64,000 nucleotides of DNA from Bacillota bacterium. Lineage in GTDB: Bacteria > Bacillota > Clostridia > Christensenellales > SZUA-584. The notes beneath the pieces were generated by a model that worked only from the letters and a program-made list of their open reading frames with translations, was not told the DNA's origin and searched no databases. This document shows, in pieces, positions 664-57,842 of the stretch. Position 1 is the first letter of the stretch, and each line of letters begins with the position of its first letter. A program made the position numbers and the translations under genes. Where the stretch lies: positions 6,634-70,633 of the forward strand of contig JAEWWC010000100.1 of assembly GCA_023396555.1 (NCBI GenBank), read 5' to 3'.

Positions 664-1112
664 TATATATCTCGCACTGAAAGGACGAGATATTTGGAGC
701 TGTGTGACCGAATCACGATCATGAAATGCGGTAAGGTGGTCGAAACCGTCGATACCAAGCTACAACTATAGATAATGTGATCGCGTCCATGATCGGCAAG
801 AGCATTCCGCGATGTTCTCCAAAAGGACCTATCAGTCCAACGGAGACGTTGTGCTGAGCGTTAAAGGGATAGCAACGGGAGCAGGACAGAGTATATTTTT
901 GAACAAATCCCTGCTACACTTGACGTTTCAATCTCGATAGAAAGAATCGTCCGAGAAGGAAAGGCTCTTTTCACATTATTCAAGGATCAAAGGTGAAAAC
1001 CTATAATTACTTTATTAGATTCAGTGATGTGTTTATTCAGGGAGCTTCCGTGATGACCATTACTATGATTTACCTTGTTGTTGAAGACAAAGCAATGGGA
1101 ATAATCCCCTAA
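664..1112 (+). pseudogene. Decayed CUT2-type sugar ABC transporter ATPase (multiple stops and frameshifts)
   Basis: Typical ABC ATPase peptides are recognisable but scattered over different frames with stops between them: ISH*KDEIF / ELCDRITIMKCGKVVETVDTK, MIGKSIP..FSKRTYQSNGDVVLSVKGIATGAG, and GASVMTITMIYLVVEDKAMG. Confidence 0.55.
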
Positions 1113-1116
1113 ATTT

Positions 1117-6214: not shown

Positions 6215-6217
6215 CGT

Positions 6218-7237: not shown

Positions 7238-7280
7238 ATAATCAATCAATTTCCCGATAAAACAATGAAGGAGGAAGAAG

Positions 7281-34662: not shown

Positions 34663-35121
34663 GTGAGCGACGGCATCAAGGTGCTGATCAAGAACAAGAA
34701 GGCGTATCACGAGTTTTTTATCGACGAAACGGTGGAAGCGGGTATCGCGCTGGTGGGCAGCGAAGTGAAGTCGATACGCGGCGGCAAGGCGAACATCAAG
34801 GAAGCGTTCGTGCGTATCATTAATAATGAAGCGTTTATCGTGGGGATGCATGTGAGTCCGTATGAGAAGGGCAGCTACTTCAACCAGGATCCGCTTCGCC
34901 AGAGAAAGCTGCTGCTGCACAAGCGCGAGATCGTGAAACTTTACAGTTTGGCCACACAGAAAGGCTTGACGTTGGTACCGCTCGCGGTATACTTAAAGCA
35001 GGGCAAAGTGAAGCTCGAGATCGGCGTGGCGCGCGGCAAAAAGTTGTATGACAAACGGCAAAGCATTGCCGAGCGCGATGCGCAAAGAGCCAAGGAGATC
35101 GCCACGAAGATGGCGAGATAG
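34663..35121 (+). CDS. smpB: SsrA-binding protein
   Basis: 152-aa ORF with a GTG start and the blocks [20 protein letters not shown] and LLLHKREI. It lies immediately upstream of the tmRNA. Confidence 0.9.
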
Positions 35122-35144: not shown

Positions 35145-35508
35145 GGGGGCGTGTTTGGCTTTCGACGGGGGTTGGCCAGGGCCGGATAAGCGGGTCGCAG
35201 TCCCGGAGTGCTGCGTTAAAAAGCCGGAACTTAAATTTAGTTGCAGACAAAACTGAACTAGCTTACGCTGCTTAAGGCAGTGTAATGCCCTGCCGGTGGC
35301 ACCCTAATCGCCGGGGACAGGGTATCATTAACTAGGGGAACCTCTTCCGCAAAGCTTTGAGCGGAGGAGAGGATTATGAAGCTACCGCAAATATGCCCCT
35401 GAGCGCGGGGGTGTATGGAGGGAAACGGTTTAAATACACGTTCTGCACCCGGAGAAAGTCTGACTTTGGAACCTTCGGACAGGGGTTCGACTCCCCTCGC
35501 CTCCACCA
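35145..35508 (+). ncRNA. ssrA: tmRNA (transfer-messenger RNA)
   Basis: The 5' GGGGGCG pairs with the 3' CGCCTCC, followed by ACCA. A T-arm GGGGTTCGACTCCCC is present. The tag reading frame at 35243-35275 is GCA GAC AAA ACT GAA CTA GCT TAC GCT GCT TAA, giving ADKTELAYAA*. It follows smpB. Confidence 0.9.
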
Positions 35509-35519
35509 CTAAAAACCAC

Positions 35520-35554
35520 AATCGCCTAATACTTGGATAGAGTATTGGGCGATT
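35520..35554 (+). terminator. Hairpin currently following ssrA (weak U-tract)
   Basis: A 14-bp stem AATCGCCTAATACT / AGTATTGGGCGATT with loop TGGATAG, followed by TGTATTTAT. Confidence 0.55.
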
Positions 35555-35661
35555 TGTATTTATATATTGACATTGGATAAATCATAAAACATGTTTATTT
35601 TCTTGATACATTTTAATAAGGGCTATATAATGATAGTGGATATTAATGTAACTTATTTAAC

Positions 35662-38600
35662 ATGTGTAGTAAGGGTATTTTAATGGAAGTGATTGATAAT
35701 CTAAATAAAACACTTCGAGATGATCTTCAGGTACGAATTGATAAAAAAAGCAAGATATCTATTGCGGCATCGTGCTTTTCAATATACGCTTTCCAAGAAC
35801 TGAAAAAGCAATTAAACGATATTGAAGCTTTACGCTTTATATTTACATCTCCGGCGTTCACAACCGAAAAAGCTAGCAAAGAACGCCGTGAATTTTATAT
35901 ACCACGCCTTCAGCGAGAAAAGAGCCTATATGGCTCCGACTTTGAAATTAAGCTTCGAAATGAATTAACGCAAAAAGCCATTGCGAAAGAATGTGCCGAA
36001 TGGATTAAGCGCAAGGTTACTTTTAAATCTAATATAAGCAACAACAGGATGAGTGGTTTTTTAAACCTTGATGATAACCGGGATAAATGGACTTATCTCC
36101 CGATAGACGGTTTTACTACGGTTGACCTTGGTTGCGATAGAGGCAATAATATGTACAACATTATTAACCGCTTTGAGGCTCCCGTCAGCAATGAATACTT
36201 CCGTGTATTTGAAGAAGTCTGGAATGATAAAGCCAAGCTGCAAGATGTAACCGATGAAGTATTGGAGAATATAACAGCAGCATACAAGGAAAACTCTCCA
36301 GAGTTTATATATTTCGTGACACTGTATAATGTCTTCAGCGAGTTTCTTGAAGACATTTCTGAAGATATCCTGCCTAACGAAGCAACTGGCTTCAAGCAGA
36401 GTAAGATATGGAATATGCTTTATAACTTCCAGCAGGACGCGGCTCTGGCTATTATAAACAAGCTGGAGAAATATAACGGCTGTATATTAGCGGATAGTGT
36501 TGGCCTTGGCAAGACGTTTACAGCACTGGCGGTAATAAAATACTATGAAAACCGTAATAAGTCAGTACTTGTTCTTTGTCCAAAGAAGTTGTCCGATAAC
36601 TGGAATACCTTCAAGATGAACCTGTTAAATAACCCGATTGCAAAGGACAGGCTTAATTACGATGTTTTATTTCATACTGACCTGTCTCGCAATAGTGGGT
36701 ATACAAATGGTATGCCACTTGATCGTGTTAACTGGGGCAATTACGACCTTGTAGTAATTGATGAGTCGCATAACTTTAGAAACGGCGGCGATGTGTTTGA
36801 CGAAAATCGGACACAGGAAAACCGCTATGTAAGGCTTATGAATAGGGTTATCCGCAGCGGTGTAAAAACAAAAGTATTGATGCTTTCTGCGACTCCGGTA
36901 AACAACCGCTTCTCAGACTTAAAGAATCAGATTGCGCTTGCTTATGAAGGCGAGAGCGATAACATAAAAGATAAGCTGGATATAAATCGTAGCATAGAAG
37001 ATGTATTTAATCGGGCGCAGCGTTCCTATAACTCTTGGTGCAAATTAAATACTGCGGAGCGTACAACTGAACAGTTATTATCAATGCTGGACTTTGAGTT
37101 CTTTGAAGTCCTCGATAGCGTTACTATCGCACGATCCCGTAAGCATATACAAAATTATTATGATACGGCGGATATAGGTACATTCCCTGAAAGAAAAAAA
37201 CCGTTGTCTTTACCGTGTAAATTAACTGATTTGAGCGGTTGCCTAACATATAATGATATTTATAACGAGCTTTCAAAGCTGACGTTGTCTATTTACACGC
37301 CATCAGCATATATATTGGCAAGCAAAGTTGAAGAATACGAGCAGTTATATGATACGAAGATTGGCAGTTCATCATTTAAACAAATTGACCGCGAGCAAAG
37401 CCTTCTGATACTCATGCGAGTAAACCTTCTGAAACGCCTTGAAAGTTCCGTCCATTCATTCCGGCTAACAATAAGCAGAATCCTTGCTTTAATAAATGAG
37501 ACTATAGAAAACATCGGGCACTACGATAAAACTAGAGGGACATTCTCATTTAACGACATGGCGGATATAGAAGACTTTGATATCGACGATGAGAACAACG
37601 ACAGCTTTACTTTTGGCAAAAAGGTTCAGATTGAGCTTGAAGATATGGATTATACCGGATGGCTTAACGACTTGGAATGGGACAGAGATATTCTGACCGC
37701 CCTTTATAACGAGATGGCTCGGATAACGCCATTGTATGATAATAAGCTGCATGTGCTTTTTAACACGATACGAAATAAGATTAACAATCCTATTAACGAA
37801 GGAAACAAGAAGATACTTATATTCTCCGCTTTCTCCGATACTGTTGATTACTTATACGAAAACGTTAGCCGAATGGTTAAAGCAGAGTTTGATTTAGAAA
37901 CGGCTATGGTAACAGGCGGCGTTGACGGGCGGACTTCAATTCCGAGACTTAGGGCTGATCTGAATACCGTGCTTACCTGCTTCTCCCCTGTTTCGAAGGA
38001 AAAGCAATTAATAATGCCGAACCAGCAAGCTGAAATAGATATTCTTATAGGCACAGACTGTATTTCGGAAGGCCAGAATCTACAGGACTGTGACTATCTT
38101 ATAAATTACGATATACACTGGAACCCCGTGCGGATCATTCAGCGTTTCGGCAGAATCGATAGAATAGGTAGCAAGAACTCCGTTATACAACTCGTCAACT
38201 TCTGGCCTGATATCTCGCTCGATGAGTATATTAACCTTAAATCAAGGGTTGAGACCCGTATGAAGATATCCGTTATGACTTCAACGGGCGACGATAACCC
38301 CATTGATCAAAATGACGGTGACTTGGAATATAGAAGAAAGCAGCTTGAACGACTACAGAATGACGTTGTTGATATAGAAGAGATCTCTGGCGGAATCTCG
38401 ATAATGGACTTAGGCCTTAACGAATTCCGCATGGATTTAATCAGCTATATAAAACAAAACCCTGACCTCGATAAAGTGCCGCACGGCATGAACACAGTCG
38501 TACGTTCGTCTGAAAGCACACCCTCAGGCATAATATATGTGCTGCGGAATATAAACGACGGTGTAAATATCAACCGAACAAACCGGCTGCATCCTTTCTA

Positions 38601-38922
38601 TATCGTATACATAACCGACGAAGGTGAGGTTTATTGCGACCATCTGCATCCGAAAGATACACTAGACCTATTGCGGCATCTGTGCAAGGGGAAAGCTGAA
38701 CCTATAAAAGAACTATGCCAGAGCTTTAACGAGGAAACAAAAGACGGTAAAAAGATGGACAAGTATTCACAGCTTCTGGAAGACACAATATCGTCTATTA
38801 TCAAAGTGGGTACAGAAAGCGATATCGATAGTCTCTTCAAGCCGGGCGGAACGTCTGCTCTGACTACCCGGATATCGGGACTTAATGACTTTGAGCTGAT
38901 AACGTTTGTGGTTGTAAAATAG
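35662..38922 (+). CDS. SNF2-family (SF2) helicase-related protein with an unassigned ~240-aa N-terminal domain
   Basis: 1086-aa ORF (alternative ATG at 35683). Motifs seen are I LADSVGLGKTFTA, II VVIDESHNFRN, III MLSATPVNN, and V/VI GTDCISEGQNLQD..NYDIHWNPVRIIQRFGRIDRIGS. The codon usage is AT-rich. Confidence 0.85.
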   Translation: MCSKGILMEVIDNLNKTLRDDLQVRIDKKSKISIAASCFSIYAFQELKKQLNDIEALRFIFTSPAFTTEKASKERREFYIPRLQREKSLYGSDFEIKLRNELTQKAIAKECAEWIKRKVTFKSNISNNRMSGFLNLDDNRDKWTYLPIDGFTTVDLGCDRGNNMYNIINRFEAPVSNEYFRVFEEVWNDKAKLQDVTDEVLENITAAYKENSPEFIYFVTLYNVFSEFLEDISEDILPNEATGFKQSKIWNMLYNFQQDAALAIINKLEKYNGCILADSVGLGKTFTALAVIKYYENRNKSVLVLCPKKLSDNWNTFKMNLLNNPIAKDRLNYDVLFHTDLSRNSGYTNGMPLDRVNWGNYDLVVIDESHNFRNGGDVFDENRTQENRYVRLMNRVIRSGVKTKVLMLSATPVNNRFSDLKNQIALAYEGESDNIKDKLDINRSIEDVFNRAQRSYNSWCKLNTAERTTEQLLSMLDFEFFEVLDSVTIARSRKHIQNYYDTADIGTFPERKKPLSLPCKLTDLSGCLTYNDIYNELSKLTLSIYTPSAYILASKVEEYEQLYDTKIGSSSFKQIDREQSLLILMRVNLLKRLESSVHSFRLTISRILALINETIENIGHYDKTRGTFSFNDMADIEDFDIDDENNDSFTFGKKVQIELEDMDYTGWLNDLEWDRDILTALYNEMARITPLYDNKLHVLFNTIRNKINNPINEGNKKILIFSAFSDTVDYLYENVSRMVKAEFDLETAMVTGGVDGRTSIPRLRADLNTVLTCFSPVSKEKQLIMPNQQAEIDILIGTDCISEGQNLQDCDYLINYDIHWNPVRIIQRFGRIDRIGSKNSVIQLVNFWPDISLDEYINLKSRVETRMKISVMTSTGDDNPIDQNDGDLEYRRKQLERLQNDVVDIEEISGGISIMDLGLNEFRMDLISYIKQNPDLDKVPHGMNTVVRSSESTPSGIIYVLRNINDGVNINRTNRLHPFYIVYITDEGEVYCDHLHPKDTLDLLRHLCKGKAEPIKELCQSFNEETKDGKKMDKYSQLLEDTISSIIKVGTESDIDSLFKPGGTSALTTRISGLNDFELITFVVVK

Positions 38923-38941
38923 CCTCAATAAGGAGGATGGA

Positions 38942-39610
38942 ATGCTAGGGTTACCGGCCTCTACGGAATTCAATCAGCGTATACCGAAAACCAAGTTCTA
39001 CGCGAACCTCGGCATGACGCCTGCGGTCAAGCGCCTGTTTACTGATCAGTTAGATACGATTATATGGCGCAACAAAATATGCCCGGATACGGTCAATATA
39101 GCCCCAGCAGATAACGTTGCGGAAATCGAAGTTATTGAAACAAGCCTAAAATATAAGAAACTAGATAAACGGGTACTCGAAATAATTGACCGCGAGGTGC
39201 CGTACCATATCGTATTTGTACTGTCGTTTGAAGGCATGGAACAGCTGGCTATCGGTTACAAGCAGGAGAGTGGTAACCGTGAAGATCAATACAAAGTAGA
39301 TTCCTATTATTTCTCCGACTGGAGACCGAAGGGGCAGCTGGCATTGGAGCTAAAGGCTCTGAATCTTGGCAGCCTGTACGAAGGCTGGCTAAAAAGCCTA
39401 TTACCAACACATGCAGTAAAAACAGGTGATATAGCCGAGGCTGTAAGCAAACATAAAGAAATTGAGCGTCTGGAAAAGCAAATTGCCTCTCTTGAGAAGA
39501 AAATCGGACAGGAGAAACAGTTTAATATAAGAGTCAAGCTCAATACGGAGCTTAGATTAGTCAATCATGAATTAGAGGTATTAAATGAGGAGTTTCCTTC
39601 GGCGTTATAA
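38942..39610 (+). CDS. DUF4391-like protein
   Basis: 222-aa ORF starting 19 nt after the helicase stop, with a strong RBS (AAGGAGGA). The family assignment is from memory of the size, the N-terminal pattern (..KTKFY....T...K..F...ID.I.W..KI......I) and its usual helicase/methylase neighbourhood. It needs an HMM check. Confidence 0.55.
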   Translation: MLGLPASTEFNQRIPKTKFYANLGMTPAVKRLFTDQLDTIIWRNKICPDTVNIAPADNVAEIEVIETSLKYKKLDKRVLEIIDREVPYHIVFVLSFEGMEQLAIGYKQESGNREDQYKVDSYYFSDWRPKGQLALELKALNLGSLYEGWLKSLLPTHAVKTGDIAEAVSKHKEIERLEKQIASLEKKIGQEKQFNIRVKLNTELRLVNHELEVLNEEFPSAL

Positions 39611-39748
39611 AAAGCATATCATTTTGATCCTACTTTTGAGTATATTTGTTATACCTTTTTTGATTAATATTGCTTTTAAAATATCAAGCCCGTTTCGTAT
39701 TCTAGTAGCTGAATGGGAAGCAGGAGACGCCCTTGGTTTTATATCGGC

Positions 39749-40147
39749 TTCCGTGTACTGAAGGTGGATAGTACAAACATGAAGGATGTTTACTATTCCG
39801 CTGATGAGTACGACCAGACTATGCTGAGCGCGCTGGAATCGAACATCAAGGAAGGCCGTACGGATATGGATTTGTTGTATCAGGTGCTGCTGGATTGGGG
39901 TCTGCCGCTTAGCCTGAAACACGTTACCGAAAAGCTGGATAGCGTGAATGTACATACCGTTGATGATGGGGCGCTGATGGCCTGCTTTGACGCAAACGTT
40001 CCCGAGAGCGTTATCCGTGAGATGGCGAAGCGTAAGCCGTTGCGCGTGGTGTTCCGTGACAGCAGCTTTACAGACAGTCCGAGCAAGATCAATGTGGAAG
40101 AGATATTCAAACTAAATGCGCCGGGGACGGATGTAAGAGTGATATAA
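39749..40147 (+). pseudogene. DNA methyltransferase (Type III Mod-like, N6/N4 class), C-terminal ~130 aa only
   Basis: FRVLKVDSTNMKDVYY...MDLLYQVLLDWGLPLSL...ACFD...RVVFRDSSF..KINVEEIFK matches the conserved non-catalytic tail of these methylases. No catalytic DPPY or AdoMet motifs occur upstream. A 58-aa chimeric ORF (39585-39761) occupies the junction. Confidence 0.6.
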
Positions 40148-40159
40148 GGATCGTGTTCT

Positions 40160-40363
40160 ATGAGTTTAACAATTGATTTCTTTATGTTGGATGTAAAAAT
40201 CTATATCAGTCAAATTGAATCCATCAGCACTTATTATAACGAAATTTATAATAGGGTAATACTTTCAAATGAAAAGAAACTTGAAGAGGAGATTTTTAAA
40301 AGTATTGCTGATGTTGAAAGGAAATACGGAAAATGTCATGCTACCATGGCTCCTCCCCGATAG
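40160..40363 (+). CDS. Hypothetical small protein (67 aa)
   Basis: AT-rich ORF followed by a hairpin and T-run at about 40346-40380. No motif and no obvious RBS. Confidence 0.3.
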   Translation: MSLTIDFFMLDVKIYISQIESISTYYNEIYNRVILSNEKKLEEEIFKSIADVERKYGKCHATMAPPR

Positions 40364-40454
40364 GGAGAGGCTTTTTTTATCTATTTACTAATTGCTCTTA
40401 TTTGTATTTGATTTCAGTAAAATTCAAGAGGTAGGATTAATATCAGATTAACGA

Positions 40455-41948
40455 TTATTCCTCTTTGCTGGTGGACAGTTCCATGACCTTTTCCACGGTG
40501 ATATCCTTGGTGGAAACATTGCATACCAGCGTGCGGTCTGCAAGCACGGCCACTCGGTCACAGATGCCGAGTATCTCTTCGATGTCGGATGAAATAAAGA
40601 TGATGCCGGCTTTTTTCTTAATCAGGTCGTTGATTGAATTGTAAATGTCAATTTTGCTGGCGATATCAAGACCTCTTGTGGGCTCATCCAGTATAAATAT
40701 TTTAGCACGGCTCATGATCCATTTGGCGAATATCGCCTTTTGCTGGTTGCCGCCGCTGTATTCCAGTATGTTGTTGTTGGGGCTCTGCAGTATGTTCAGC
40801 TTTGTTACGTAATCGGCCACCGCCTGCTCCAAAAAGGTGGTGTTGATCATACTGTAGTTGGCGAATCGCTTAAGCGCTGCCACCGCAACGTTGTTTTTAA
40901 CGTCCAGCGCACCGAAAATAGAATCGTTCAGGCGGTTCTCGGGTATCAACGCAATACCGTTGTATATTGCCTTGTAAGGGCTGTCCAGCACCACCTTGCT
41001 ACCGTTGATCAGAATATCGCCCTTTACGTTGTCCACTGCGCCGAACAGGCAGTTGGCCAGCAGCGTCCGGCCGGAGCCGGCCAGCCCTGTGATGCCAAGT
41101 ATGTCGCCCTCGTACACATCGAAATTGATGTTCTTAAGCTTGTCGGCAAAGCCCAGATTCCGTGCGGAGAATATGTTTTTACCTTTACGTATCACCATTT
41201 TGGGATATCTGTTCTTAATGTAGTGCCCGCTGAGCATCCGGATGATCTCTTCCTGGGGGCACTCGGCGGCGATTTTCGTCCCCATGATCTTTCCGTTCTT
41301 GATGATGGTGACGCGGTCGCCCAGCAGCGAAACATCTTCCAGACAGTGTGTAATGTAGAACACGCCCGCGCCGCGCTCCTTGATCTTGTTGACGATACGG
41401 TAGAGCAGCTCGCGCTCACTGGGGGTGAGGGCGGACGACGGTTCGTCCAGTATCACAATCTTGGCATCCGAAATGTAAGCCCGGCAGAATTCGATGATCT
41501 GCCGCTGTGCGAACCCCAGCGACGATACCTTGTCATATACGGACACAGGCAGGCTCAGTTCCTCGATCAGCTGCTGGCACATGTAGTTGAGCTTATCGTA
41601 ATCGATACTCCTGAAGAGCTTGTTTTTGTATGGCAGGTTGTGAAAGAACAGATTCTCGGCGACGGAAAGCTGTGTAAGCATCGCCGCGTCCTGACGGATA
41701 TATATGACATCATCGAACAGAGCGGAAGAGAATGCCTTGTTTTTGACCGGCTTGTCCTGAATATATATTTGTCCGGAATGCGGCACAATAAAGCCGCTGA
41801 TCACCTGCATCAGCAGACTCTTCCCCGAGCCGTTTTCTCCCATCACCACATGGATCTCTTTTTCATACAGATCGATATTGATATCGCTGAGACGGAAGTT
41901 CTCCAGAGACAAACTGACATTCTCAAGCTGCAGAAGCTTAGAGGGCAT
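40455..41948 (-). CDS. Sugar ABC transporter ATP-binding protein (fused double ATPase) without cognate permease or binding protein in its operon
   Basis: 497-aa ORF with Walker A GENGSGKS and GLAGSGRT, signature YSGGNQQK and Walker B ILDEPS / ILDEPT. Confidence 0.85.
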   Translation of the reverse strand: MPSKLLQLENVSLSLENFRLSDINIDLYEKEIHVVMGENGSGKSLLMQVISGFIVPHSGQIYIQDKPVKNKAFSSALFDDVIYIRQDAAMLTQLSVAENLFFHNLPYKNKLFRSIDYDKLNYMCQQLIEELSLPVSVYDKVSSLGFAQRQIIEFCRAYISDAKIVILDEPSSALTPSERELLYRIVNKIKERGAGVFYITHCLEDVSLLGDRVTIIKNGKIMGTKIAAECPQEEIIRMLSGHYIKNRYPKMVIRKGKNIFSARNLGFADKLKNINFDVYEGDILGITGLAGSGRTLLANCLFGAVDNVKGDILINGSKVVLDSPYKAIYNGIALIPENRLNDSIFGALDVKNNVAVAALKRFANYSMINTTFLEQAVADYVTKLNILQSPNNNILEYSGGNQQKAIFAKWIMSRAKIFILDEPTRGLDIASKIDIYNSINDLIKKKAGIIFISSDIEEILGICDRVAVLADRTLVCNVSTKDITVEKVMELSTSKEE

Positions 41949-41978
41949 CTCTTCAATACTCCTTCGCGTTTATAGGAC

Positions 41979-42755
41979 CTATTCTTCGTAAATATCGACT
42001 GAAGTATATAGTTGTATGTTCAGGTCAAAGAGGAAATCCTTATATGAATCATCAAGCGTTGAGTTTGTGATGATCTTGTTGGCAATTTCCAGCCCGCCGA
42101 CACGATAAAATGATTTTTCTCCAAAATGATCGGCCAGACAAACAACCGATACGGTTTGAGCCATGTTGCATGCCTGCTGTATTAAGGACGCTTTGCTGAT
42201 GCTAGACACGGTGATGCCAGTCTTTTTGCAGATGCCGTCTACTTCAACGATCAGATGGTTAAGCGAGAAGTTCTGCATGTTGTTGATAGCCAGTTGGCCG
42301 TATACGGCGTATTCATCCAGATCGCCTCCCAGCAGTATCATCTTGTTGCCGGGAGATGAGGAGAACTCCAGCGCTATTTTCAAATCGTTGGTGAGTACCG
42401 TCAATCCGTTTTTTTGTGTCAGTCTTTTTGCAATTTGCTGGTTGGTCAGACCATCAGTGAGCATGATGATGTCGTTATCCGATATGATGTGAAACACGGT
42501 ATCCGCTATTTCAATACGCTGCATTGTATGCGTATCTTCCTGGGGTATGTCTACGATGTATGAATCATCCAGATACTCGTTAAGGACTGCGCCGCCATGC
42601 GCACGTTTCAAGAAACCTTCATTTTCGAGTTTTTCAAGATCGCGGCGTATGGTGACTTCGGTGACATTGAGCAGGCTGCTCAGTTTGGCAACAGAAACAT
42701 GTTTGTCTTTATGCAGGTAATCTTTAATTATGTTCATGCGTTCGATTGCAAACAT
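41979..42755 (-). CDS. DeoR family transcriptional regulator
   Basis: 258-aa ORF with an N-terminal HTH (VSVAKLSSLLNVTEVTIRRDLEKLENEGFLKRAHGGA) and a DeoR C-terminal sugar-phosphate-binding domain pattern. Confidence 0.85.
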   Translation of the reverse strand: MFAIERMNIIKDYLHKDKHVSVAKLSSLLNVTEVTIRRDLEKLENEGFLKRAHGGAVLNEYLDDSYIVDIPQEDTHTMQRIEIADTVFHIISDNDIIMLTDGLTNQQIAKRLTQKNGLTVLTNDLKIALEFSSSPGNKMILLGGDLDEYAVYGQLAINNMQNFSLNHLIVEVDGICKKTGITVSSISKASLIQQACNMAQTVSVVCLADHFGEKSFYRVGGLEIANKIITNSTLDDSYKDFLFDLNIQLYTSVDIYEE

Positions 42756-42884
42756 ATGTGTGCACCTAAGCCCTTTTCAGGTTATACATTAAATAATAAA
42801 ATAAACATGCGATTTTGACAATACGTAAGAATAGATTAAAATTCGAACACGAAACAAACATAAAAATTAACTTGTACGTAAGTG

Positions 42885-42913
42885 TTGACAGAATAATAAC
42901 GCGATGATACAAT
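42885..42913 (+). promoter_or_regulatory. Candidate sigma-A promoter for the arabinose-type ABC operon
   Basis: TTGACA (42885-42890), a 17-nt spacer, then TACAAT (42908-42913). This would leave a leader of about 250 nt that is A/C-rich. A second TTGACA lies at 42815. Confidence 0.5.
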
Positions 42914-43164
42914 ATGAAACGAACAAAAACAAAAAAAACCAATCTGTAACGATAAGACTAATAAACAATAGCACAAATGATTAAAGGATTGGGAACAAAA
43001 ACGTTCACGCCACACAGAAAAGAAACCAGAATCTTAATCCGACCCATATAATGTTGCAATAATAATCAAGGCAGGCTTAAATTGATGCTGACTTTTGAAT
43101 TTTAAGAGTTGCTAGGTAAGTCCGGTTACCAAAGCAATAGACTATATATTTAAGGAGTAAGAAC

Positions 43165-44316
43165 ATGAAGAGAATCGTATTATTCACGCTTGTGCTTTCT
43201 TTGGTATTTGCACTGGTTGCCTGCGGCGGAACAACACCTGCCCCGGCGGAGACATCTGAAGCTCCGGCTGCGACGGATGCACCGGCTGCTGCGACGGAAG
43301 CGGTTGAGTCTGTAGTGCCGGCTGACGGCGGTTACATTGGTATCTCGATGCCCACTCAGTCCAGCGAACGTTGGATCAAAGATGGCAACACGATGAAAGA
43401 GATACTTGAGGAAAGAGGATACACCGTTGACCTGCAGTACGCGGAAGACGATATCCCGACTCAGAAGTCCCAGATCGAGAACATGATCACCAAGGGTGCG
43501 AAGGCGCTCGTGATCGCGGCTGTTGACGGCTCCACGCTGTCCGCAACGCTGGATCAGGCTGGCAAAGACGGCGTGAAAATCATCTCCTACGACCGTCTGC
43601 TGGTTGACACCGATGCTGTTTCCTACTATGCGACATTCGACAACAGAGGCGTTGGCAAACTGCAGGCTGAGTCTCTCGTTGAAGGCCTGAAGGCCACCAA
43701 GGGCGATGGCCCCTACAACATCGAGCTGTTTGCCGGTTCTCCGGACGACACGAACTCCTTCTACTTCTACTCGGGCGCTATGGATGTTCTCCAGCCGCTG
43801 ATCGATGCCGGCACCGTCGTGATTCCCTCCGGTCAGACGGCTCAGGCTGACATCGGAACGCTCCGTTGGGACGGCGCTGTGGCTCAGGCCCGTATGGACG
43901 CGATCCTTGCTGCCAACTACACCAGCGGCGCTAAGCTGGACGGCGTGCTGTCTCCCTATGACGGTCTGTCCAGAGGCATCATCTCCTCGCTGACCTCCTT
44001 CGGTTACCAGCCCGGAACGGAAGACTGGCCGGTTGTGACGGGTCAGGATGCCGAAGCTGCTTCCATCAAGCTGATCATTTCCGGTGAGCAGTATTCGACG
44101 ATACTGAAAGACACCAGAGACCTTGCCAAGGTTGCGGCTGACATGGTTGATGCGGTGCTTGCAGGCAAAGAACCGGAGATCAACGATACCACCACGTATG
44201 ACAACAACGTGAAGATCGTTCCTTCGTATTTGCTCATTCCGTACACCGTAACAGTTGCAAATTATCAGGAACTTGTTATGGATTCCGGTTATCTGACAGC
44301 AGACGACATCAAATAA
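43165..44316 (+). CDS. Sugar ABC transporter substrate-binding lipoprotein (ChvE/arabinose-galactose-xylose type)
   Basis: 383-aa ORF with lipobox LVAC GG and an Ala/Pro/Thr/Glu linker, followed by a PBP type I pattern ([12 protein letters not shown]..). Confidence 0.8.
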
Positions 44317-44347
44317 TACGCTAAACTGATCATTTGAAGGGGCCAGA

Positions 44348-44381
44348 AATCGGCTAGCGGCAGAAATGCCGCTAGCCGATT
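44348..44381 (+). promoter_or_regulatory. Intercistronic perfect 14-bp stem-loop after the binding-protein gene
   Basis: AATCGGCTAGCGGC-AGAAAT-GCCGCTAGCCGATT, with no U-run. Confidence 0.6.
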
Positions 44382-44436
44382 GAGGCTATAAAGAAGTATA
44401 ATATAAATGGTTTTGGGCAGATAAAGGAGTCAGACT

Positions 44437-45981
44437 ATGGAAAAGTATATTTTAGAGATGAGGAACATTACAAAGACATTTCCGGGAGTCAAAGCTCTTG
44501 ATAATGTTAACTTGCGGGTTAAACCTCACAATATCCATGCGTTGGTTGGTGAAAACGGCGCCGGAAAGTCAACGCTGATGAATATTTTGAGTGGCGTGTA
44601 TCCTCACGGATCGTATGAGGGAGATATCGTTGTTGAGGGGGAAGTCTGCGTATTCAAGTTCATCAACGACAGTGAAGCCAAAGGTATAGCAATCATTCAT
44701 CAGGAACTTGCTCTCATTCCCAGCCTGTCTATCGCTGAGAATGTTTTTTTAGGAAATGAGCAGTCTAAAAATAAACTCGTCATCAATTGGGACAAAACAC
44801 GGCAAAAAACTATAGAGATGCTGAAAAAGGTCGGTCTGGACGAACATACCGATACACAGGTGAAAGACATCGGCCTTGGCAAGCAGCAGTTAGTCGAAAT
44901 CGTAAAGGCGCTTGCCAAGGACGTCAAGATATTGATATTGGATGAACCGACAGCTGCGCTGAATGATGAGGACTCAGATCATCTGCTTGATCTGCTTGTG
45001 GAGCTCAAATCACAGGGCATTACCAGCATCATCATATCCCACAAGCTCAACGAGGTTACAAAGGTTGCGGACGAGATTACAATACTACGTGACGGTATGA
45101 CAATCCAAACGCTCGTTAAAGAGGTGGACGATATCACCGAGGAGCGCATCATCAAAGCGATGGTGGGCCGCGAGTTGACGGACCGCTTCCCCAAACGCAC
45201 CTGCAAACCCGGCGAGGTCTGCTTTGAGGTGGAAAACTGGAATGTGTACAGCCCGTTGGACGACCAGAAGCAGGTAATCAGGGACGTCAGCTTAAATGTG
45301 CGCAGAGGCGAGGTGCTGGGTATCGCAGGTCTGATGGGCGCAGGCCGCACAGAACTGGCGATGAGCTTGTTCGGTAAGGCTTATGGCGCCAAAATTTCGG
45401 GCACAGTCCGCAAGGACGGCAAAACACTGGTGATGCACGATATCAGCGATGCGATTAAAAACGGTATTGCATATGCGACGGAGGACAGAAAATCGGCCGG
45501 CCTGATATTGATCGACGACATCAAGCGGAATATCACGCTGTCGTCTCTGGGTACGCTAAAACGGGGCCTGGTGATCGACGACAACAGGGAGATACAGGTT
45601 GGCGAGGACTACAGGTCCAAACTCAACATCAAATCATCGAGCATTCTGCAAAAGACGGGAAACCTTTCAGGCGGAAATCAGCAGAAGGTGGTTTTCAGCA
45701 AATGGATCTTTGCGGACCCGGATATTCTTTTCCTGGATGAACCGACGCGCGGCATCGACGTCGGTGCCAAGTATGAGATATACACGATCATCAACGACCT
45801 GGTTTCACGGGGGAAATCCATTGTGATGATATCGTCCGAGCTGCCTGAGCTGTTGGGCATGAGCGACCGGATATATGTCATGAACCGGGGAACGATCGTG
45901 GGAGAACTTGAGGCGAGCGAAGCGTCCCAGGAGAGAATCATGCAATGCATTATGCAGAGCAACAAGGAGGTAGTAAAATGA
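44437..45981 (+). CDS. Sugar ABC transporter ATP-binding protein (GguA/AraG-like double ATPase)
   Basis: 514-aa ORF with GENGAGKST and [16 protein letters not shown], and ILDEPT / FLDEPT. Confidence 0.9.
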
Positions 45982-47147
45982 AAAGCATAAAATCTGTTCT
46001 GAGAGGGAATATCCGTCAGTATGCAATGATCATCGCGCTGGTTGTCGTTGTGATCATTTTCGAAGTACTGACCAAAGGCATATTGTTGCAGCCTCTCAAT
46101 ATATCTAACCTCATACAGCAGAACGCCTACGTGCTGATACTGGCCATCGGTATGCTGCTGTGCATACTGACCATCGGTAACATCGATCTGTCGGTCGGCT
46201 CGGTCGTGGGCTTCGTGGGCGCGCTGTCCGCCATATTCATACTGAAGATGGATATGCCTGTATGGATCGCGATGATTCTGTCGCTCATTATCGGGTTTAT
46301 CATCGGCGCATGGCAGGGCCTTTGGATCGCGTACATCGGCGTACCGGCGTTCATCGTGACGCTGGGCGGCCAGCTGATATTCAGAGGGCTCACCATGGTG
46401 GTGCTGCAGGGCACGAGTTTAGCGCCGCTGCCGGGAACGTATACGTTCATCGCAGCCGGCTTTATCCCGGACTTTGCGAGCATCGAAGGCATCAACCTCT
46501 TGACTCTTGTTGCGGGTGCGGTTGCGAGCGTGATATTCATATTCAATGAGATCAGCAAGCGTGCCAATCGGAAAAAATATAACTTTGACGTATCCCATCC
46601 GCTCACATTTATCGCCAAGCTCGTGCTGATTACGGTAGTGATTATGGCATTCTGTTACGCTCTGGCGCTGTACAGAGGCATACCGATGGTGCTGTTGATC
46701 GTGGTGGTGCTGGTGCTGTTGTACACCTTCGTCACCGAGAAGACCATCCCTGGACGTCACATATACGCTTTTGGAGGCAACCCCAAGGCGGCGCGGCTGT
46801 CGGGTATCAAGACCAAGCGCGTGCTGTTCTGGGTGTATGTGAACATGGGCGTGCTGACGGCGCTGGCGGGCATCGTGTTCACGGGCCGTCTCAACTCGGC
46901 AACGCCCAAGGGCGGCTACGGCTTTGAGCTGGATGCGATCTCCGCGTGCTTCATCGGCGGCGCTTCCACCACGGGTGGCATCGGCACCGTTATCGGCGCG
47001 ATCGTCGGCGGCCTGCTGATGGGCGTGCTAAACAACGGCATGTCGATCATGGGAGTCAGCATCGACTGGCAGCAGGCCATCAAGGGCTTTGTTCTGCTGG
47101 TGGCGGTGGGCTTCGACGTGCTGTCCAAATCCAGGTCTAAGACCTGA
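45978..47147 (+). CDS. Sugar ABC transporter permease (GguB/AraH-like)
   Basis: The start is at the ATG after AAGGAGG and overlaps the ATPase stop (ATGA). It is about 389 aa, polytopic, and has the blocks GNIDLSVGS and [25 protein letters not shown]. Confidence 0.85.
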
Positions 47148-47177
47148 TAACGGCGCGGCGGGAAAAGGAGGAGCAAC

Positions 47178-48644
47178 TTGATCAGTAAATATCAGTTCTG
47201 GTTTGTGGTCGGCAGTCAAAACCTGTACGGGCCGGAGGTACTCAAGGAGGTGGCGGAGCATGCCGCCCTGATGACGGCGGGCTTCAACGCCGACGGGCGT
47301 ATCCCCTTTGAGGTGGTTTTCAAAGGGGTAATGACTACCCCGGATGATATCACCGCTGTCTGTGTTGCGGCCAATGGTGACTCAAGCTGCGCGGGCGTAA
47401 TCACATGGATGCACACGTTTTCGCCCAGCAAGATGTGGATAAGCGGGCTGACTGTGCTGAACAAGCCGTATCTGCACCTCAACACGCAGTTCAACAAACG
47501 GCTGCCATACGACACGATTGACATGAATTTTATGAACACCAATCAGTCGGCGCACGGTGACAGGGAACACGGGTTTATTACCGCCCGTCTGCGCATGAAA
47601 AGAAAGGTGATCTGCGGGCACTGGGAGGACGGCGCTTTCCGGACGCGTATCGGCAGTTGGATGCGCAGCGCGGTGGGCGCAGTGTTCAGCCGGCGCGTCA
47701 AGGTGATGCGGCTGGGGGATAACATGCGCTACGTGGCGGTGACCGAGGGCGACAAGATACAGGCGGAGAAGGACCTTGGCTGGAGCGTGAATACGTATGC
47801 CGTGGGCGCGCTGACCGAGCGCGTGATGGCAGTGACCGACGCGCAGGCGCAGGCCAAGCTGGCGGAATACAAAGAGAAGTATGCCATCGATACGAACAAC
47901 CTGGACGCGGTGGTGTATCAGGCGAAGCTGGAGATTGCGCTGGAGCAGATGCTGTCCGAAGGCGGGTTTGCCGCGTATACTGACTGCTTTGAAGACCTGT
48001 ACGGTCTGGAACAGCTGCCGGGATTGGCCACGCAGAACCTGATGAACAATGGCTACGGCTTCGGCGCCGAGGGCGACTGGAAGACATCCGCGCTCAAGGC
48101 GGTTATGTCCGAGATGTCCCTGGGGCTAGGGCAGAACCTCTCGTTTATCGAGGACTATACTTATGACTTCGAGGACGGTGACGAGACGGTATTGGGTGCG
48201 CACATGCTGGAGATATCGCCCGCGATTGCGGCAGATAGGCCGCGCATTGAGGTGCACCCGCTGGGTATCGGCGGTAAAAACGATCCCGCACGGTTGGTAT
48301 TTGAGGGCAAGACGGGCGATGCGATACTGGTCACCATCATCGACATGGGCGGGCGGTTCCGCATGATCGCACATGATGTCAGCGCAGTGGAGCCCAAGGC
48401 CAAGATGCCGCTGCTGCCGGTGGCGAGCGTGATGTGGAAGCCCCAGCCCGATATGATCACTGGCAACGAAGCATGGATACTGTCAGGTGGCACGCACCAC
48501 AGCGTGATATCCTACGACCTGACGGCAGACATGATGCGCGACTTTGCCGAGATCATGGGCATTGAGTTCATCCATATCGGCAAGGATACCACCATCGCCG
48601 AATTAGCGGCCAAACTTGCAGTGGGGGATATTCTCTGGGGATAA
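47178..48644 (+). CDS. araA: L-arabinose isomerase
   Basis: 488-aa ORF with a TTG start after AAAAGGAGG. The N-terminal FWFVVGSQNLYGPEVLKEV matches the AraA signature, and the sequence is collinear throughout (FMNTNQSAHGDREHGF, EGDWKT). Confidence 0.9.
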   Translation: MISKYQFWFVVGSQNLYGPEVLKEVAEHAALMTAGFNADGRIPFEVVFKGVMTTPDDITAVCVAANGDSSCAGVITWMHTFSPSKMWISGLTVLNKPYLHLNTQFNKRLPYDTIDMNFMNTNQSAHGDREHGFITARLRMKRKVICGHWEDGAFRTRIGSWMRSAVGAVFSRRVKVMRLGDNMRYVAVTEGDKIQAEKDLGWSVNTYAVGALTERVMAVTDAQAQAKLAEYKEKYAIDTNNLDAVVYQAKLEIALEQMLSEGGFAAYTDCFEDLYGLEQLPGLATQNLMNNGYGFGAEGDWKTSALKAVMSEMSLGLGQNLSFIEDYTYDFEDGDETVLGAHMLEISPAIAADRPRIEVHPLGIGGKNDPARLVFEGKTGDAILVTIIDMGGRFRMIAHDVSAVEPKAKMPLLPVASVMWKPQPDMITGNEAWILSGGTHHSVISYDLTADMMRDFAEIMGIEFIHIGKDTTIAELAAKLAVGDILWG

Positions 48645-49454
48645 TATAATATCACAGTGAATTGTCATTAAACATAAGAAGTTGACCCTGTAGCGGTAGG
48701 CGTATATTATACACAGGTTAATTGGGATACGCCTTTAAATATCTGGCTTTCTCAATAAGCAGAGAGCGCTTCATCGAGCAGGTCGCTGGTGGCGATGATT
48801 GACTAGCTGGAACAACGCAGCACCACATTGAAGAGGCGGATAAGCTTGCCTAGGCGGTCGATGTGACTAAAGAAGATATACGATACCGCTATGGGAGAGC
48901 TCGGGAGTTGTTAAACTTCGATCAATTGCCGGAGATATGGCAGTTGATAAACCTATATGCTGAGCGGATGATGTTTATTAGGGGCATGTGGAGATTTTCC
49001 TCCATGTGCTTCCTTCACTTTACGGGGTGAATCATGATATGTTTGAAAATAGGTTCATCCGAAAAACTAAGGCTCTGTCTATGTAGAATATCGAGATAAT
49101 AAAAAAAGTTAATTAATAATTATTATATTATTTATTTACCATTATCGGTTATTTATTATTGGTTTAATTGTATTATGTAAGATTTAATGATAAAATAATA
49201 CAAAAGTATGTTTATATAATTTCTCTCATATATAGAGAGAAAGGTGGGCTCTATGCCAAATTACAATTCCAAATATACAACCGCAAAGCTAATCAAACTA
49301 TATAAAACGATGAAACAATGAACAAGAGATGAAAATCCCCTCGCAATACATTACTCCAGCCAATCCGGGAAAGATCAATAAATGGTGTGGCGATAGATGA
49401 TTAGTGGAAATGAAGTACCGCATAAAGTAGTTGTGATTTTTAAATGAGCTGCGG

Positions 49455-49467
49455 CTCGCCTCCACCA
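49455..49467 (+). repeat. Exact 13-nt direct repeat of the tmRNA 3' end (candidate distal att site)
   Basis: CTCGCCTCCACCA is identical to 35496-35508 and on the same strand. Confidence 0.6.
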
Positions 49468-49474
49468 AGATTTT

Positions 49475-49509
49475 AAAACCCTTGAATTATCAAGGGTTTT
49501 ATGCTTTTT
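49475..49509 (+). terminator. Orphan intrinsic terminator (candidate ancestral ssrA terminator)
   Basis: AAAACCCTTGA-ATTA-TCAAGGGTTTT followed by ATGCTTTTT. There is no coding gene upstream to terminate. It lies 7 nt after the tmRNA-end repeat. Confidence 0.55.
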
Positions 49510-50305
49510 AAGGAGTTCTTACATGTTTTTTACACGATTGATGTTTGCACTTGAATGATATCGCACCTTCGTACAAAAAGCTACAATTTTTGCAGATATA
49601 ATCTATGTCAAAGAAACCTCTTGTATTTCATTAAATAAACTATAACTGATATGTAATATATCCTAATTTTTTGATATCCAATGGGGAATTTTTTGTACCA
49701 TTAGAAGCTACTTGGAATCATATATACTCGGAAGTTTGCCTGCAAATTTCGGTACAAACATGGGTCTTCCAAGGCACAAATGGTATGAGTTTAAAGAAGG
49801 CTTTGGTTCTTCTTTAGTCAATAGGGAAATAGAAGAAACTAAGAAATACAATCCAACAGGGTTGAGGTCGGTCGGCTTTTTTACAAAGATTTTTAATAAA
49901 TGGGTTTTAATACTTCATATTCTCTTTCAGTAGCATATTATTAAATAGCCACAATGGTGTTGATTATATACAGAATATCGAGGCGCAAGAGGCCAAAAAT
50001 CCAAATTGCTTTGAAATAATTGAAACCACTTCGTTACGCCCTTTGGAGTTGGCCATATGGTAAATACGGTAATCGGTACCGGTATCAGTATCAGCATTAT
50101 AATTGCGGCTATACCGGATAATCTATATAAAATCTACATTTCGTCAGCCTCGACAAATGCAGCGTGTTGGGGCATAATCCCATACCTCTATACGCTCTTC
50201 GGGGAGCATCTTTGAAAGGAACAGAAAGATGGCAGTAAAAACCATCGGGTTCACATCTGAATGACGAAAAACAGTTTGTAAACCTTAAAAAGAAAAGCGA
50301 TAATT

Positions 50306-50932
50306 CTATTGTTTTTTGATACCCATAAGCAAAAGGTCAAAGTGTTGGAGAACCTGATCCTTTAAATCGAAATCAGGGTATCGGATACACCATTCATAAG
50401 TCAAGCCTCTTATGGACATAATACAGTGATTCACAACGGAATCGGTGTTTATTTCTGTTTTAAATTCTCCCTGTTCTTTTCCTTGTTTAATAATTTTACC
50501 AAATATTTTATAAAGGTCCCTATTATAATTCAATAACGCGTCTGCGTTTACAACTCTTGATATATAAACTTCATATATAATCTTAATAATGTCATATCCT
50601 ATACTGCCGGTTATCGTATCCGCAATGCTCCCTGCAAACAAATTCAGCTTATCAGAAGCAGACAAACCCGCAGGTAAAGATTCCATTGCCAATCTGTATC
50701 CTATATCTATTTGGCTGACGTTATCAAAGAGCAAGGCGGCAATCATCGCATCCTTTGAATGGTAATGTACGTAGAACGAACCTTTGGCGACGCCTGCCTC
50801 TTTGACTATAGAGTCAACACTGACACGTTCAAAACCAAACTGCCTGAAAAGTTTCTCTGCGCTTTTATAGATCTTTTTTTGGGTTTCAAGAGCTTTTTGT
50901 TTTCTTATACCTATCTTCTTATTATCCAACAA
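50306..50932 (-). CDS. TetR/AcrR family transcriptional regulator
   Basis: The HTH block is SVDSIVKEAGVAKGSFYVHYHSKD. The start was chosen at the TTG preceded by AAAGGAG. The track ORF extends to 50986 but has no RBS there. Confidence 0.8.
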   Translation of the reverse strand: MLDNKKIGIRKQKALETQKKIYKSAEKLFRQFGFERVSVDSIVKEAGVAKGSFYVHYHSKDAMIAALLFDNVSQIDIGYRLAMESLPAGLSASDKLNLFAGSIADTITGSIGYDIIKIIYEVYISRVVNADALLNYNRDLYKIFGKIIKQGKEQGEFKTEINTDSVVNHCIMSIRGLTYEWCIRYPDFDLKDQVLQHFDLLLMGIKKQ

Positions 50933-51168
50933 AATAACTCCTTTATTGACACTAAAATCAGCCTGTCTTATAATGACTGTAGTCATTGAGCTTATATGTT
51001 AATTATATCATAGAAGAAATAATTATTATAGCCGTTAAAATGCGATTAGCAACTTTTGTTATAAAGCGTTGGTAAACTAAAAACAGAATGCGATTTCCCG
51101 TATATATTGTAACCGGTTGCGCACTTCAAACACTTTTGCCAGGAGCGGGATGAAAGGATTGGGCGATA

Positions 51169-56616: not shown

Positions 56617-56849
56617 GAAGCATATACATATAATTTTGATCGGATTGGCAGGTGCATTATTGCCTAGCTACCGTCTCTTGATTTATGGTCAAAGGTATGA
56701 GGGTAAACAGGTCGGACAAAATGCTTGAGTACTGCTTTATCAAGCGGTATTTCGCCGCTTTTATCCAATGAAGGTTGTATGTTTTGAAGAGTTCCAACGA
56801 TCACACAGAGATAATATGCATCAGATCCAACTCGGATATAAGTTATATC

Positions 56850-56993
56850 TCTGGGATTGTTCTTTTCCTTCTTGTAGCCATAGGGTGCTCTTGTCGCCAT
56901 GCGCTCGCCTCGTTCCACCTTGGATTTCACGACGGCTCGGATTTTCCGGCTAATATCTTTGGCATAGAAATCGTTGAACAAGTTCTTGAATTA
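56850..56993 (-). pseudogene. Large serine recombinase fragment (~48 codons)
   Basis: FKNLFNDFYAKDISRKIRAVVKSKVERGERMATRAPYGYKKEKNNPRD matches the junction between the resolvase and recombinase domains. A stop lies upstream and the sequence downstream is unrelated. Confidence 0.65.
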
Positions 56994-57262: not shown

Positions 57263-57842
57263 AGATTTAAAAAAATCCAACATTCCTTTTCAACATAAGT
57301 TGCTTTCCCTTTAATGAAACTACAAAAAAATAATCTTACCTTTCTCAAAAATAATTGCATTGTTAGGTCATGTGCTGCGTTTTATAATAAAATGCGAAGA
57401 TTATTACGAGGAAGGAGTGGTCTCGCCTTTTGGGTATCATGGTTGGGATGCGATTTCGGAGAGCATATCTCAACATATCCTGCCCAGTTACATTCCCAAA
57501 AAAATCAACAGATTTTAAAAAAATCCAACATAAGTTGCTTTCCCTTCAGGTGAAACTACAAAAATAATCTTACCGTTCTCAAAAATAATTGCATTGTTAG
57601 GTCATTTGCTGCGTTTTATAATAAAATACGAAGATTGTTAAGAGGAAGGAGTGGCTTCGCCTTTTGGGATCAGGGTGGGATGCGATTTCGGAAAGCACAT
57701 CTCAACATATCCTGCCCACCCATTCTTAATAAACAACAGATTTGAAAAAATTCAACTTAAGTTCGCTTTAATGAAACTACAAAAATAATCTTACCTTTCT
57801 TAAAAGTAATTGCATTGTTAGGTCATTTTGCTACGTTTTATA
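57259..57842 (+). repeat. Tandem repeat, ~2.5 copies of a 220-250-bp noncoding unit (putative promoter plus leader of the GH43 gene)
   Basis: The anchor CAACAGATTT occurs at 57259, 57506 and 57734. The anchor GAAACTACAAAAA occurs at 57316, 57552 and 57773. The copies differ by scattered substitutions and small indels. The third, more diverged copy runs into the GH43 RBS. Confidence 0.85.

Follow-up and report, generated by a model that had tools for sequence, protein, structure and literature searches.

Duplications of a gene end, anchored at its last base and kept in its orientation, are a known product of site-specific integration into tRNA and transfer-messenger RNA (tmRNA) genes. In the classical tmRNA islands an integrase lies beside an intact gene, and the attachment sites (attL and attR) are clean. 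Islands and prophages of this classical kind, with CP4-57 of E. coli and VPI of Vibrio as examples, are said to be the subject of 'Traffic at the tmRNA gene', which Williams reportedly published in 2003. The present analysis was concerned with the region downstream of the tmRNA gene (ssrA) in a stretch of 64,000 nucleotides (nt) from a Bacillota bacterium (assembly GCA_023396555.1, contig JAEWWC010000100.1, positions 6,634 to 70,633 of the forward strand), which as a whole is called the window, and in particular with its interval 35496-49509, for which an earlier sequence-only reading had proposed a composite island integrated at ssrA. Tandem islands of Dehalococcoides are delimited by arrays of 20-bp ssrA repeats, and some of these islands lack integration genes (McMurdie et al. 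2011, PMC3146451); a serine recombinase gene on the reverse strand adjoins attL there, and in a homologue from a marine fosmid this gene contains the repeat that takes the attL position (PMC3146451). The interval in the window is almost certainly a stack of unrelated layers and not one island, and the region downstream of ssrA is a repeatedly used hotspot of insertion and rearrangement. As an explanation of the whole, a hotspot with three layers is moderately favoured.

Same-species contigs were retrieved by exact look-up of the SmpB protein in public assemblies, and all loci compared are denoted by L numbers. L001 showed no difference from the window. L002, a scaffold of 471 kb with 98.4% identity over the backbone, and L102, from another study, stem from separate samples; over the arabinose block their identity to the window is 97.7-99.2% (97.7% for L102). 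Neither contains 35509-40335: in both, ssrA is followed by 88 nt, then by sequence identical to the window from 40336 onward with the arabinose block, and then by the distal copy of the ssrA end described below, so that partial occupancy, as the sequence-only reading had suspected, exists. The window and these two contigs split at the first base 3' of the CCA, and the left end of the additional DNA abuts the 3' end of an intact ssrA. Assemblers break contigs at population-level branch points, and several metagenome contigs were found to stop at the CCA, around 40343 and around 49265-49289.

The AT-rich left part of the interval had been read as a defence remnant, and this was borne out. The helicase and DUF4391 genes are intact, the type III methyltransferase (Mod) keeps only the last 132 of about 621 residues, and no Res nuclease/helicase was detected in the island by Pfam and PADLOC; since Mod has lost about 490 residues from its N-terminus and Res is missing altogether, the predicted defence system of the window cannot be complete. 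The GC content of the island is 0.406, and its tetranucleotide distance falls outside the range of backbone chunks. In intact relatives the order is Snf2, DUF4391, TIR or SduA_C, and Mod of 623-631 amino acids (aa) (L108, L111 and L112), followed in L111 and L112 by Abi_C or PRTase and by Res of 1041 aa; the L108 contig stops before the position of Res. One intact relative lies within a conjugative element. The search for DUF4391 relatives in metagenome contigs gave three distant loci only, none of them at ssrA. By strain comparison, 35509-40335 is shown to be a putative mobile-element remnant whose junction with ssrA falls exactly at the CCA end and which only some strains carry.

The 57 nt behind ssrA in the window are absent from L002 and L102 and recur with 86% identity after ssrA in another species (L014), where unrelated AT-rich DNA follows; they contain the hairpin 35520-35554 (-21.5 kcal/mol, z = -5.1), for which an origin from the insert had been proposed and was confirmed in this way. 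Their first 9 nt after the CCA, CTAAAAACC, are also present at the ssrA/prophage junction of the viral contig L115/L117, in which they code for the C-terminal end of a large serine recombinase of 510 aa (domains Resolvase, Recombinase and Zn_ribbon_recom) whose gene reads across that junction, and this layout is shared by three related prophage contigs. Because CTAAAAACC is common to the window and to the L115/L117 prophage junction, the comparison points to a serine-recombinase element as the presumed original vehicle of the island, the recombinase gene of which would since have gone from the window. The P-arm plus core 20-mer was also searched for in viral contigs; its single match, inside a coding region of a high-GC phage, was ascribed to chance. 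In L017 (SmpB 85% identical), two large serine recombinase homologues lie on the reverse strand at 5155-8027, from about 340 nt after ssrA, 0.3-3 kb behind it; the far end is off the contig, and L017 may carry, in intact form, an element of the sort that left the scars in the window. Since a relative, and prophages with the junction sequence of the window, have such enzymes beside ssrA, large serine recombinases that target ssrA are likely to have been the agents of integration here.

The arabinose/ABC (ATP-binding cassette) operon in the middle of the interval is host-like, with a GC content of 0.51 and with GC and tetranucleotide usage within the backbone range. Sister operons were found by a search with the sugar-binding protein and by context look-ups. 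The same six genes in the same order were present in L103 (JAEZHF01 contig 22) and L106 (JAEZJG01 contig 22), and the metagenome-assembled genomes (MAGs) of these two contigs hold the ssrA loci L011 and L013, respectively. In L103 and L106 the operon sits between sugar-isomerase/ABC genes and acetyltransferase-argF-carB-argD, with no ssrA within 7 kb, and no such operon was found within 9.6 kb of ssrA in the sister species L012 and L013; the arabinose block, for which contiguity with ssrA in all relatives had been considered, thus lies away from ssrA in sister species. By blastn, the window and L103 share 85.3% nucleotide identity over exactly 40460-48595, a span that begins at the first gene's stop codon and ends about 50 nt short of that of araA, with no homology outside; the last 16 araA codons resemble the sister araA at the protein level and have no nucleotide homology to it. 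The nucleotide identities of block and backbone were, respectively, 85.3% and 84.8% for the window and the L011 MAG, 82.0% and 81.9% for the window and the L013 MAG, and 82.8% and 82.6% for the L011 and L013 MAGs. Because the divergence of the block equals that of the backbone, the operon is, as judged from these identities, the host lineage's own, orthologous and vertically inherited, and not foreign cargo. Of the successive insertions and deletions proposed for the interval, the layering therefore stands, and the arabinose/ABC block as inserted foreign DNA does not.

The position beside argF is common to the nearer and the farther sister and is for this reason regarded as ancestral, and the position beside ssrA as derived. 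A relocation by IS3-mediated translocation is plausible: an intact element of the IS3 family of insertion sequences (IS) stands at the first base after the CCA in L011 and L012, and fragments of such elements are present in the window (49871-49921 and 56796-56849). Equally to be named as plausible is another route, in which the native operon gene-converted an island-borne copy of the same operon; this would account for the sharp edges of homology and for the mosaic araA tail. The operon is very widespread, and its sugar-binding protein is 80-99% identical across many Clostridia.

The last 13 nt of ssrA, CTCGCCTCCACCA, occur exactly twice in the window, at the end of the gene and again at 49455-49467, both on the forward strand. 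A search of both strands with one mismatch allowed gave no further match in the window, so the exact, same-orientation repeat of the sequence-only reading was reproduced. The identity between the two copies is exactly 13 nt, and the flanking bases differ at once on either side. The distal copy and the hairpin behind it are kept in the same-species contigs L002, L102, L091, L099 and L100. The ends of ssrA genes were surveyed in 47 tmRNA loci, with 370 kb upstream and 257 kb downstream on both strands; the last 11 nt of the ssrA of a given locus recurred solely downstream and on the forward strand, namely in the window, in L002, twice in L022 and twice in L033. The repeats measure 13 and 20 nt in L022 and 14 and 24 nt in L033, and one L022 relic has the same 13-nt extent and breaks off at the same base as the distal copy of the window. 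Because the 13-mer is an exact copy that reaches to the last base of the gene and keeps its orientation, and is matched by downstream-only recurrences in the 47 loci and by the extent of the L022 relic, 49455-49467 is quite probably, on these sequence comparisons, the scar (a fossil attachment site) of a past integration into the 3' end of ssrA.

Further observations were made on the ssrA-end copies of relatives. At L022 12304-12474 and L033 10905-11027, the direct copies (20 nt, and 24 nt with 2 mismatches, respectively) have an inverted copy of the T-arm, GGGAGTCGAAC, 80-100 nt upstream (p 0.016 and <0.001), and the inverted and direct copies form modules of about 120 nt with a terminator behind; a similar start is seen after ssrA in L018 (~1120). 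The modules of L022 and L033 matched no Rfam family. An inverted partial copy of the ssrA end, sought upstream of the distal repeat of the window in the manner of L022 and L033, was not significant (p 0.26). The open reading frame (ORF) between ssrA and the repeats of L022, where an integrase was expected, encodes a DapB-like dehydrogenase and no integrase. The 10-mer GCCTCCACCA in L026 falls within an ORF of 578 aa and was put down to chance.

For the three layers the following course of events is proposed. A mobile element with a Snf2-DUF4391-type III restriction-modification system would have joined at the CCA end of ssrA and supplied its own terminator, and would later have lost the recombinase, most of Mod, the restriction subunit and its right junction, and with them the initial 88 nt of the native trailer of ssrA. 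The arabinose/monosaccharide-ABC operon of the species itself now lies here, instead of or besides its place at argF-carB, and would have arrived by one of the two routes given above. The 13-nt copy would be the scar of a past integration, either an attR or the junction of two tandem elements, and the hairpin behind it either a flank dating from that integration or a terminator that an element brought in, as with the one at 35520. As far as gene content can tell, the interval appears to hold nothing able to move by itself today, and no sign of current mobility was seen.

Several results weigh against this reconstruction. No recombinase domain was found in 35509-49454 by Pfam and PADLOC on ORFs of at least 70 aa and on the small ORFs of the debris, in agreement with the heterogeneous interval without integrase of the earlier description. 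Apart from the state of the L002 type, an empty site or excision junction was found for none of the layers. The right end of the strain-variable unit 35509-40335 bears no ssrA-end repeat, and the 13-mer does not lie at a compositional boundary. The conserved ssrA trailer stands on the ssrA side of the operon, where a simple single integration would place it after the 13-mer, so that extra events must be assumed. Finally, the 48-aa recombinase-like stretch at 56850-56993, described below, is weak (E ~1e-3 to 2e-2, no Pfam match).

The form in which the insertion had first been put, with 35509-49454 inserted stepwise, 49455-49467 as the displaced ssrA end, 49468 onward as the ancestral flank and the hairpin at 49474 as the original ssrA terminator, is improbable, although the repeat is exact and anchored with a good terminator behind it, relatives without the arabinose block at ssrA exist, and partial occupancy is seen in L002 and L102. 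The hairpin itself was upheld as an orphan: its stem at 49474-49501, seven nt past the distal repeat by terminator scan, has 12 bp and is followed by TGCTTTTT, it folds at -15.3 kcal/mol (z = -3.7; 0 of 200 shuffles fold as well), the nearest forward-strand gene upstream is araA, which ends at 48644, 810 nt before the repeat, and these 810 nt contain no ORF with a family match. A different trailer, however, follows ssrA in L002, L102, the sister strain L006 (93% identity over the 1 kb of backbone available) and the more distantly related species L016; it consists of the hairpin H1 and the weak terminator-like T2, differs from the sequence of the distal hairpin, and in the window survives ssrA-proximal to the operon as 40336-40378, which is identical in L002 and L102 and has its homologue directly after ssrA in L006. 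The fold of T2 was not separable from shuffles (-13.6 kcal/mol, z = -1.5, 16 of 200 fold as well), and T2 is listed by the terminator scan. That the distal hairpin is the ancestral ssrA terminator is accordingly no more than an unlikely proposition. The distal flank resembles the ssrA trailers of L015, L016 and L006 weakly (p 0.003-0.03); an unrelated Fusibacter terminator equals this resemblance, which is thus a generic likeness of terminators. The distal repeat may equally mark an internal junction of a tandem array that once stood here, and its terminator may have come with an element, as at 35520.

The flank to the right of the distal repeat, which opens with AGATTTTAAAACCCTTGAATTATCAAGGG and has the TetR/Calx-beta pair beyond, was not recovered next to ssrA. 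The excision or empty-site junction looked for, ssrA-CCA joined to 49468 onward (AGATTTTAAAACCC), was seen in none of about 20 relatives; an exact scan for the ssrA/AGATTTT junction CTCGCCTCCACCAAGATTTTAAAA gave no match in 241 M metagenome records, a collection that does not contain the species, and the junction had no match in viral contigs. The check for empty sites therefore succeeded for partial occupancy and failed for ssrA joined to this flank, and 49468 onward as the ancestral flank was left without a supporting contig. The TetR-Calx pair (50306-56616) is syntenic with ssrA in no relative: in L097, the closest other species with this pair (79% nucleotide identity), a 175-aa ORF and an unrelated sugar-binding protein, and no ssrA, lie beyond TetR; two start variants of TetR gave no match by exact look-up, look-up by protein id gave contigs of the same arrangement only, and the contig of an 83% homologue is short and shows no ssrA. 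Nor does the atypical DNA end at 49467. The GC content is 0.35-0.37 in stretches on both sides of the distal repeat, the AT-rich composition runs through tetR to about 51.1 kb, and AT-rich mobile debris reaches about 57 kb, with IS3 fragments and a probable recombinase fragment at 49.9 and 56.8-57.0 kb, so the variable region evidently reaches beyond 49509. Windowed GC and tetranucleotide profiles, one of the checks proposed, marked 35509-40335 and the debris as atypical and 40457-48595 as host-like, and showed no boundary at the 13-mer. The vertical inheritance of the operon likewise speaks against stepwise insertion of the whole interval.

It is very unlikely that ssrA and the 13-nt repeat form a still-working att pair with the operon in an integrase-less, cis-mobilizable cassette between them. 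If true, serine recombinases acting in trans (of the L017 or L117-L120 type) could excise and spread the operon, and a core metabolic operon would have been captured naturally into a mobile platform at a tmRNA gene.

Still less credit is given to a chance match of the 13-mer beside an unrelated intergenic terminator, serving araA read-through or tetR on the other strand. The match is just 13 nt long with no extended or degenerate similarity around it, no integrase is present, and the hairpin could act in both directions; moreover, the distal copy, which is the best local-alignment match of the last 60 nt of ssrA in the window, barely exceeds the background when it is not anchored at the 3' end (score 26 against 24). 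The expectation for an anchored 13-mer is, however, about 0.002, and in dinucleotide shuffles with one mismatch allowed a mean of 0.07 matches was obtained and 0 of 100 reached two. The 13-mer is also GC-rich and embedded in debris of 35-37% GC, and the ssrA-end survey and the L022 relic speak against chance as well. Its commonness, which had been proposed for a genome-wide count, was assessed in 114 fetched loci, in which it was found at ssrA ends, at the same distal site in same-species contigs and as the two extra downstream copies in L022; L035 and L036 each have a single copy about 1.8 kb past smpB, which may be an ssrA end, and there were no other background copies. A target-site duplication by a transposon at the ssrA end is barely credible: IS3 and Tn7-like elements use the locus and some IS families duplicate more than 10 bp of target, but the IS3 and Tn7 families make duplications of 3-5 bp, no terminal inverted repeats stand beside either copy, the conserved trailer lies on the wrong side, and the L022 relic of the same extent and the longer repeats of L022 and L033 fit fixed att identity blocks better.

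The preferred account, a layered hotspot, is in keeping with what lies behind ssrA elsewhere. RNase R, smpB and ssrA are collinear across L001-L027, ssrA starting 24 nt 3' of smpB, and smpB is the last gene syntenic with all relatives; from the first base after the CCA the DNA differs in every lineage examined, with IS3 directly at that base in L011 and L012, a VWA/DUF11 surface protein in L013 and polysaccharide genes in L016. In L006, a 419-aa TniQ-domain gene on the reverse strand follows directly after the conserved trailer, together with a 148-aa ORF and a partial HATPase gene (974-3016), and may represent a Tn7-like element homing downstream of ssrA on a contig too short for TnsA/B/C or ends. 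With regard to the ssrA gene itself, the tag peptide given by ARAGORN for the window is AGDRVSLTRGTSSAKL; a canonical-looking tag frame is present at 35243-35275 (opening with GCA GAC AAA and closing with GCT GCT TAA; ADKTELAYAA*), and the ARAGORN tags of relatives include ADKTELAYAA in L014 and the close variant ADNTKLAYAA in L016. The call for the window is probably a mis-picked resume codon.

The coordinates of all features are collected in Table 1. The debris at 48645-50305 showed no plasmid similarity, no Pfam match in nine small ORFs and no Rfam family, and its only recognisable piece is a 52-nt IS3 fragment (49871-49921) with an 86.5% nucleotide match to the IS directly after ssrA in L012. 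At 49177-49226 the window has about 50 nt where L002 (19778-19934) and L102 have about 157 unrelated nt. Farther to the right, 56796-56849 matches the L012 transposase by tblastn (83% over 18 aa), and 56850-56993 matches the ssrA-targeting serine recombinases of L117/L120 (29-32% over 34 aa) in the SR...G.R.PYG region and is tentatively taken as a fragment from the end of a serine-recombinase catalytic domain. The two IS3 relics have the same orientation and bracket tetR and the Calx-beta gene. The Calx-beta protein has 1815 aa, 13 Calx-beta repeats and a C-terminal anchor-like region, and its C-terminus resembles that of the 1001-aa VWA/DUF11 protein after ssrA in L013; in L091 (99.9% identical DNA) the gene is called as two (605 and 1209 aa), which indicates a frameshift or stop polymorphism between strains. 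Between the Calx-beta gene and a GH43 gene, at 57291-57842, an AT-rich unit of 234 nt is present in 2.4 tandem copies (86% matches).

Table 1. Coordinates of the features in and around the region downstream of ssrA (positions in the window).
Feature	Position	Strand	Basis
smpB	34663-35121	+	Pfam SmpB 1.8e-58
ssrA, CCA encoded; proximal repeat copy = last 13 nt (35496-35508)	35145-35508	+	ARAGORN, Rfam RF00023 (167.7 bits), pattern search
Insert-borne junction (CTAAAAACC...) and replacement terminator hairpin (35520-35554)	35509-35565	+	Comparison with L002, L102, L014
Strain-variable degraded defence island	35509-40335	+	Pfam, PADLOC, strain comparison
HKD+Snf2 helicase	35662-38922	+	PADLOC C3a139, E 4.7e-123
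DUF4391	38942-39610	+	Pfam 6.8e-59
Type III methyltransferase, C-terminal stub	39713-40147	+	MTase_III, 8.3e-38, profile positions 490-621 of 621
67-aa fusion ORF	40160-40363	+	
Surviving 3' part of conserved ssrA trailer, with hairpin T2 (40350-40367) and T-run	40336-40378	+	Comparison with L002, L102, L006
Six-gene operon, judged native and relocated	40457-48595	both	Pfam, blastn, sister MAGs
ABC ATPase	40455-41948	-	Pfam
DeoR regulator	41979-42755	-	Pfam
Sugar-binding protein	43165-44316	+	Pfam
ABC ATPase	44437-45981	+	Pfam
Permease	45945-47147	+	Pfam
L-arabinose isomerase (araA)	47178-48644	+	Pfam
Mosaic araA 3' tail (last 16 codons)	48596-48644	+	Alignment with sister-species araA; blastn edge 48595
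AT-rich non-coding debris, hairpin 48981-49012, strain-polymorphic at ~49177-49226	48645-49454		GC 0.367, indel against L002/L102
Distal exact copy of ssrA 3' end, probable fossil attachment site	49455-49467	+	Pattern search, loci of relatives
Orphan terminator-like hairpin and T-run	49474-49509	+	Terminator scan, folding
AT-rich debris with IS3-family fragment (49871-49921)	49510-50305		GC 0.350
TetR regulator	50306-50986	-	Pfam
Calx-beta giant surface protein	51169-56616	+	Pfam
IS3 transposase fragment (56796-56849) fused to probable large-serine-recombinase fragment (56850-56993)	56796-56993	-	tblastn

For the calling of islands, the locus gives a caution, as a direct repeat of a tRNA or tmRNA gene end can bracket wholly non-foreign DNA; imported cargo and relocated native genes can be told apart when the divergence of the block is set against that of the backbone in sister genomes. 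For this uncultured Christensenellales-like lineage of gut or digester, the 3' end of ssrA is a landing site common to defence islands, IS3, serine-recombinase elements and a TniQ-type transposon, and also the place of at least one internal rearrangement.

When compared with the ssrA islands of Dehalococcoides, the window likewise has a region of high plasticity directly behind a tmRNA gene present in single copy, copies of the ssrA 3' end as direct repeats on the downstream side only, and metabolic cargo between ssrA and a repeat (PMC3146451); it is likewise without an integration module, as are some Dehalococcoides segments that are possibly cis-mobilizable or fixed (PMC3146451). The L115/L117 prophage resembles the marine-fosmid homologue in that the last codons of its recombinase cross the ssrA/prophage junction. 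The window differs from Dehalococcoides in its phylum, in its single repeat of 13 and not 20 bp, and in its central cargo, which is demonstrably the host's own relocated operon and not horizontally acquired genes; the integration module of six genes, in which the serine recombinase DsiB lies on the reverse strand beside attL, is absent from it, and a recombinase comparable to DsiB was found next to ssrA only in L017 and the prophage contigs L117-L120. Its defence genes keep the order of the intact Snf2(HKD)-DUF4391-type III Mod-Res clusters L108, L111 and L112, and differ from them by the loss of about 490 Mod residues and all of Res, their function being predicted from sequence alone. With the classical tmRNA islands the window shares integration at the ssrA 3' end, the restored gene end with element-supplied sequence downstream, a direct repeat that is probably a displaced 3' fragment and, in the defence part, strain-variable occupancy and atypical composition; in contrast to those islands, its variable part has lost the integrase and the right-hand junction, and most of the DNA enclosed by the single repeat is native. 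The locus is thus of the classical kind, a tmRNA-gene insertion hotspot with decayed occupants, and it points to no new mechanism.

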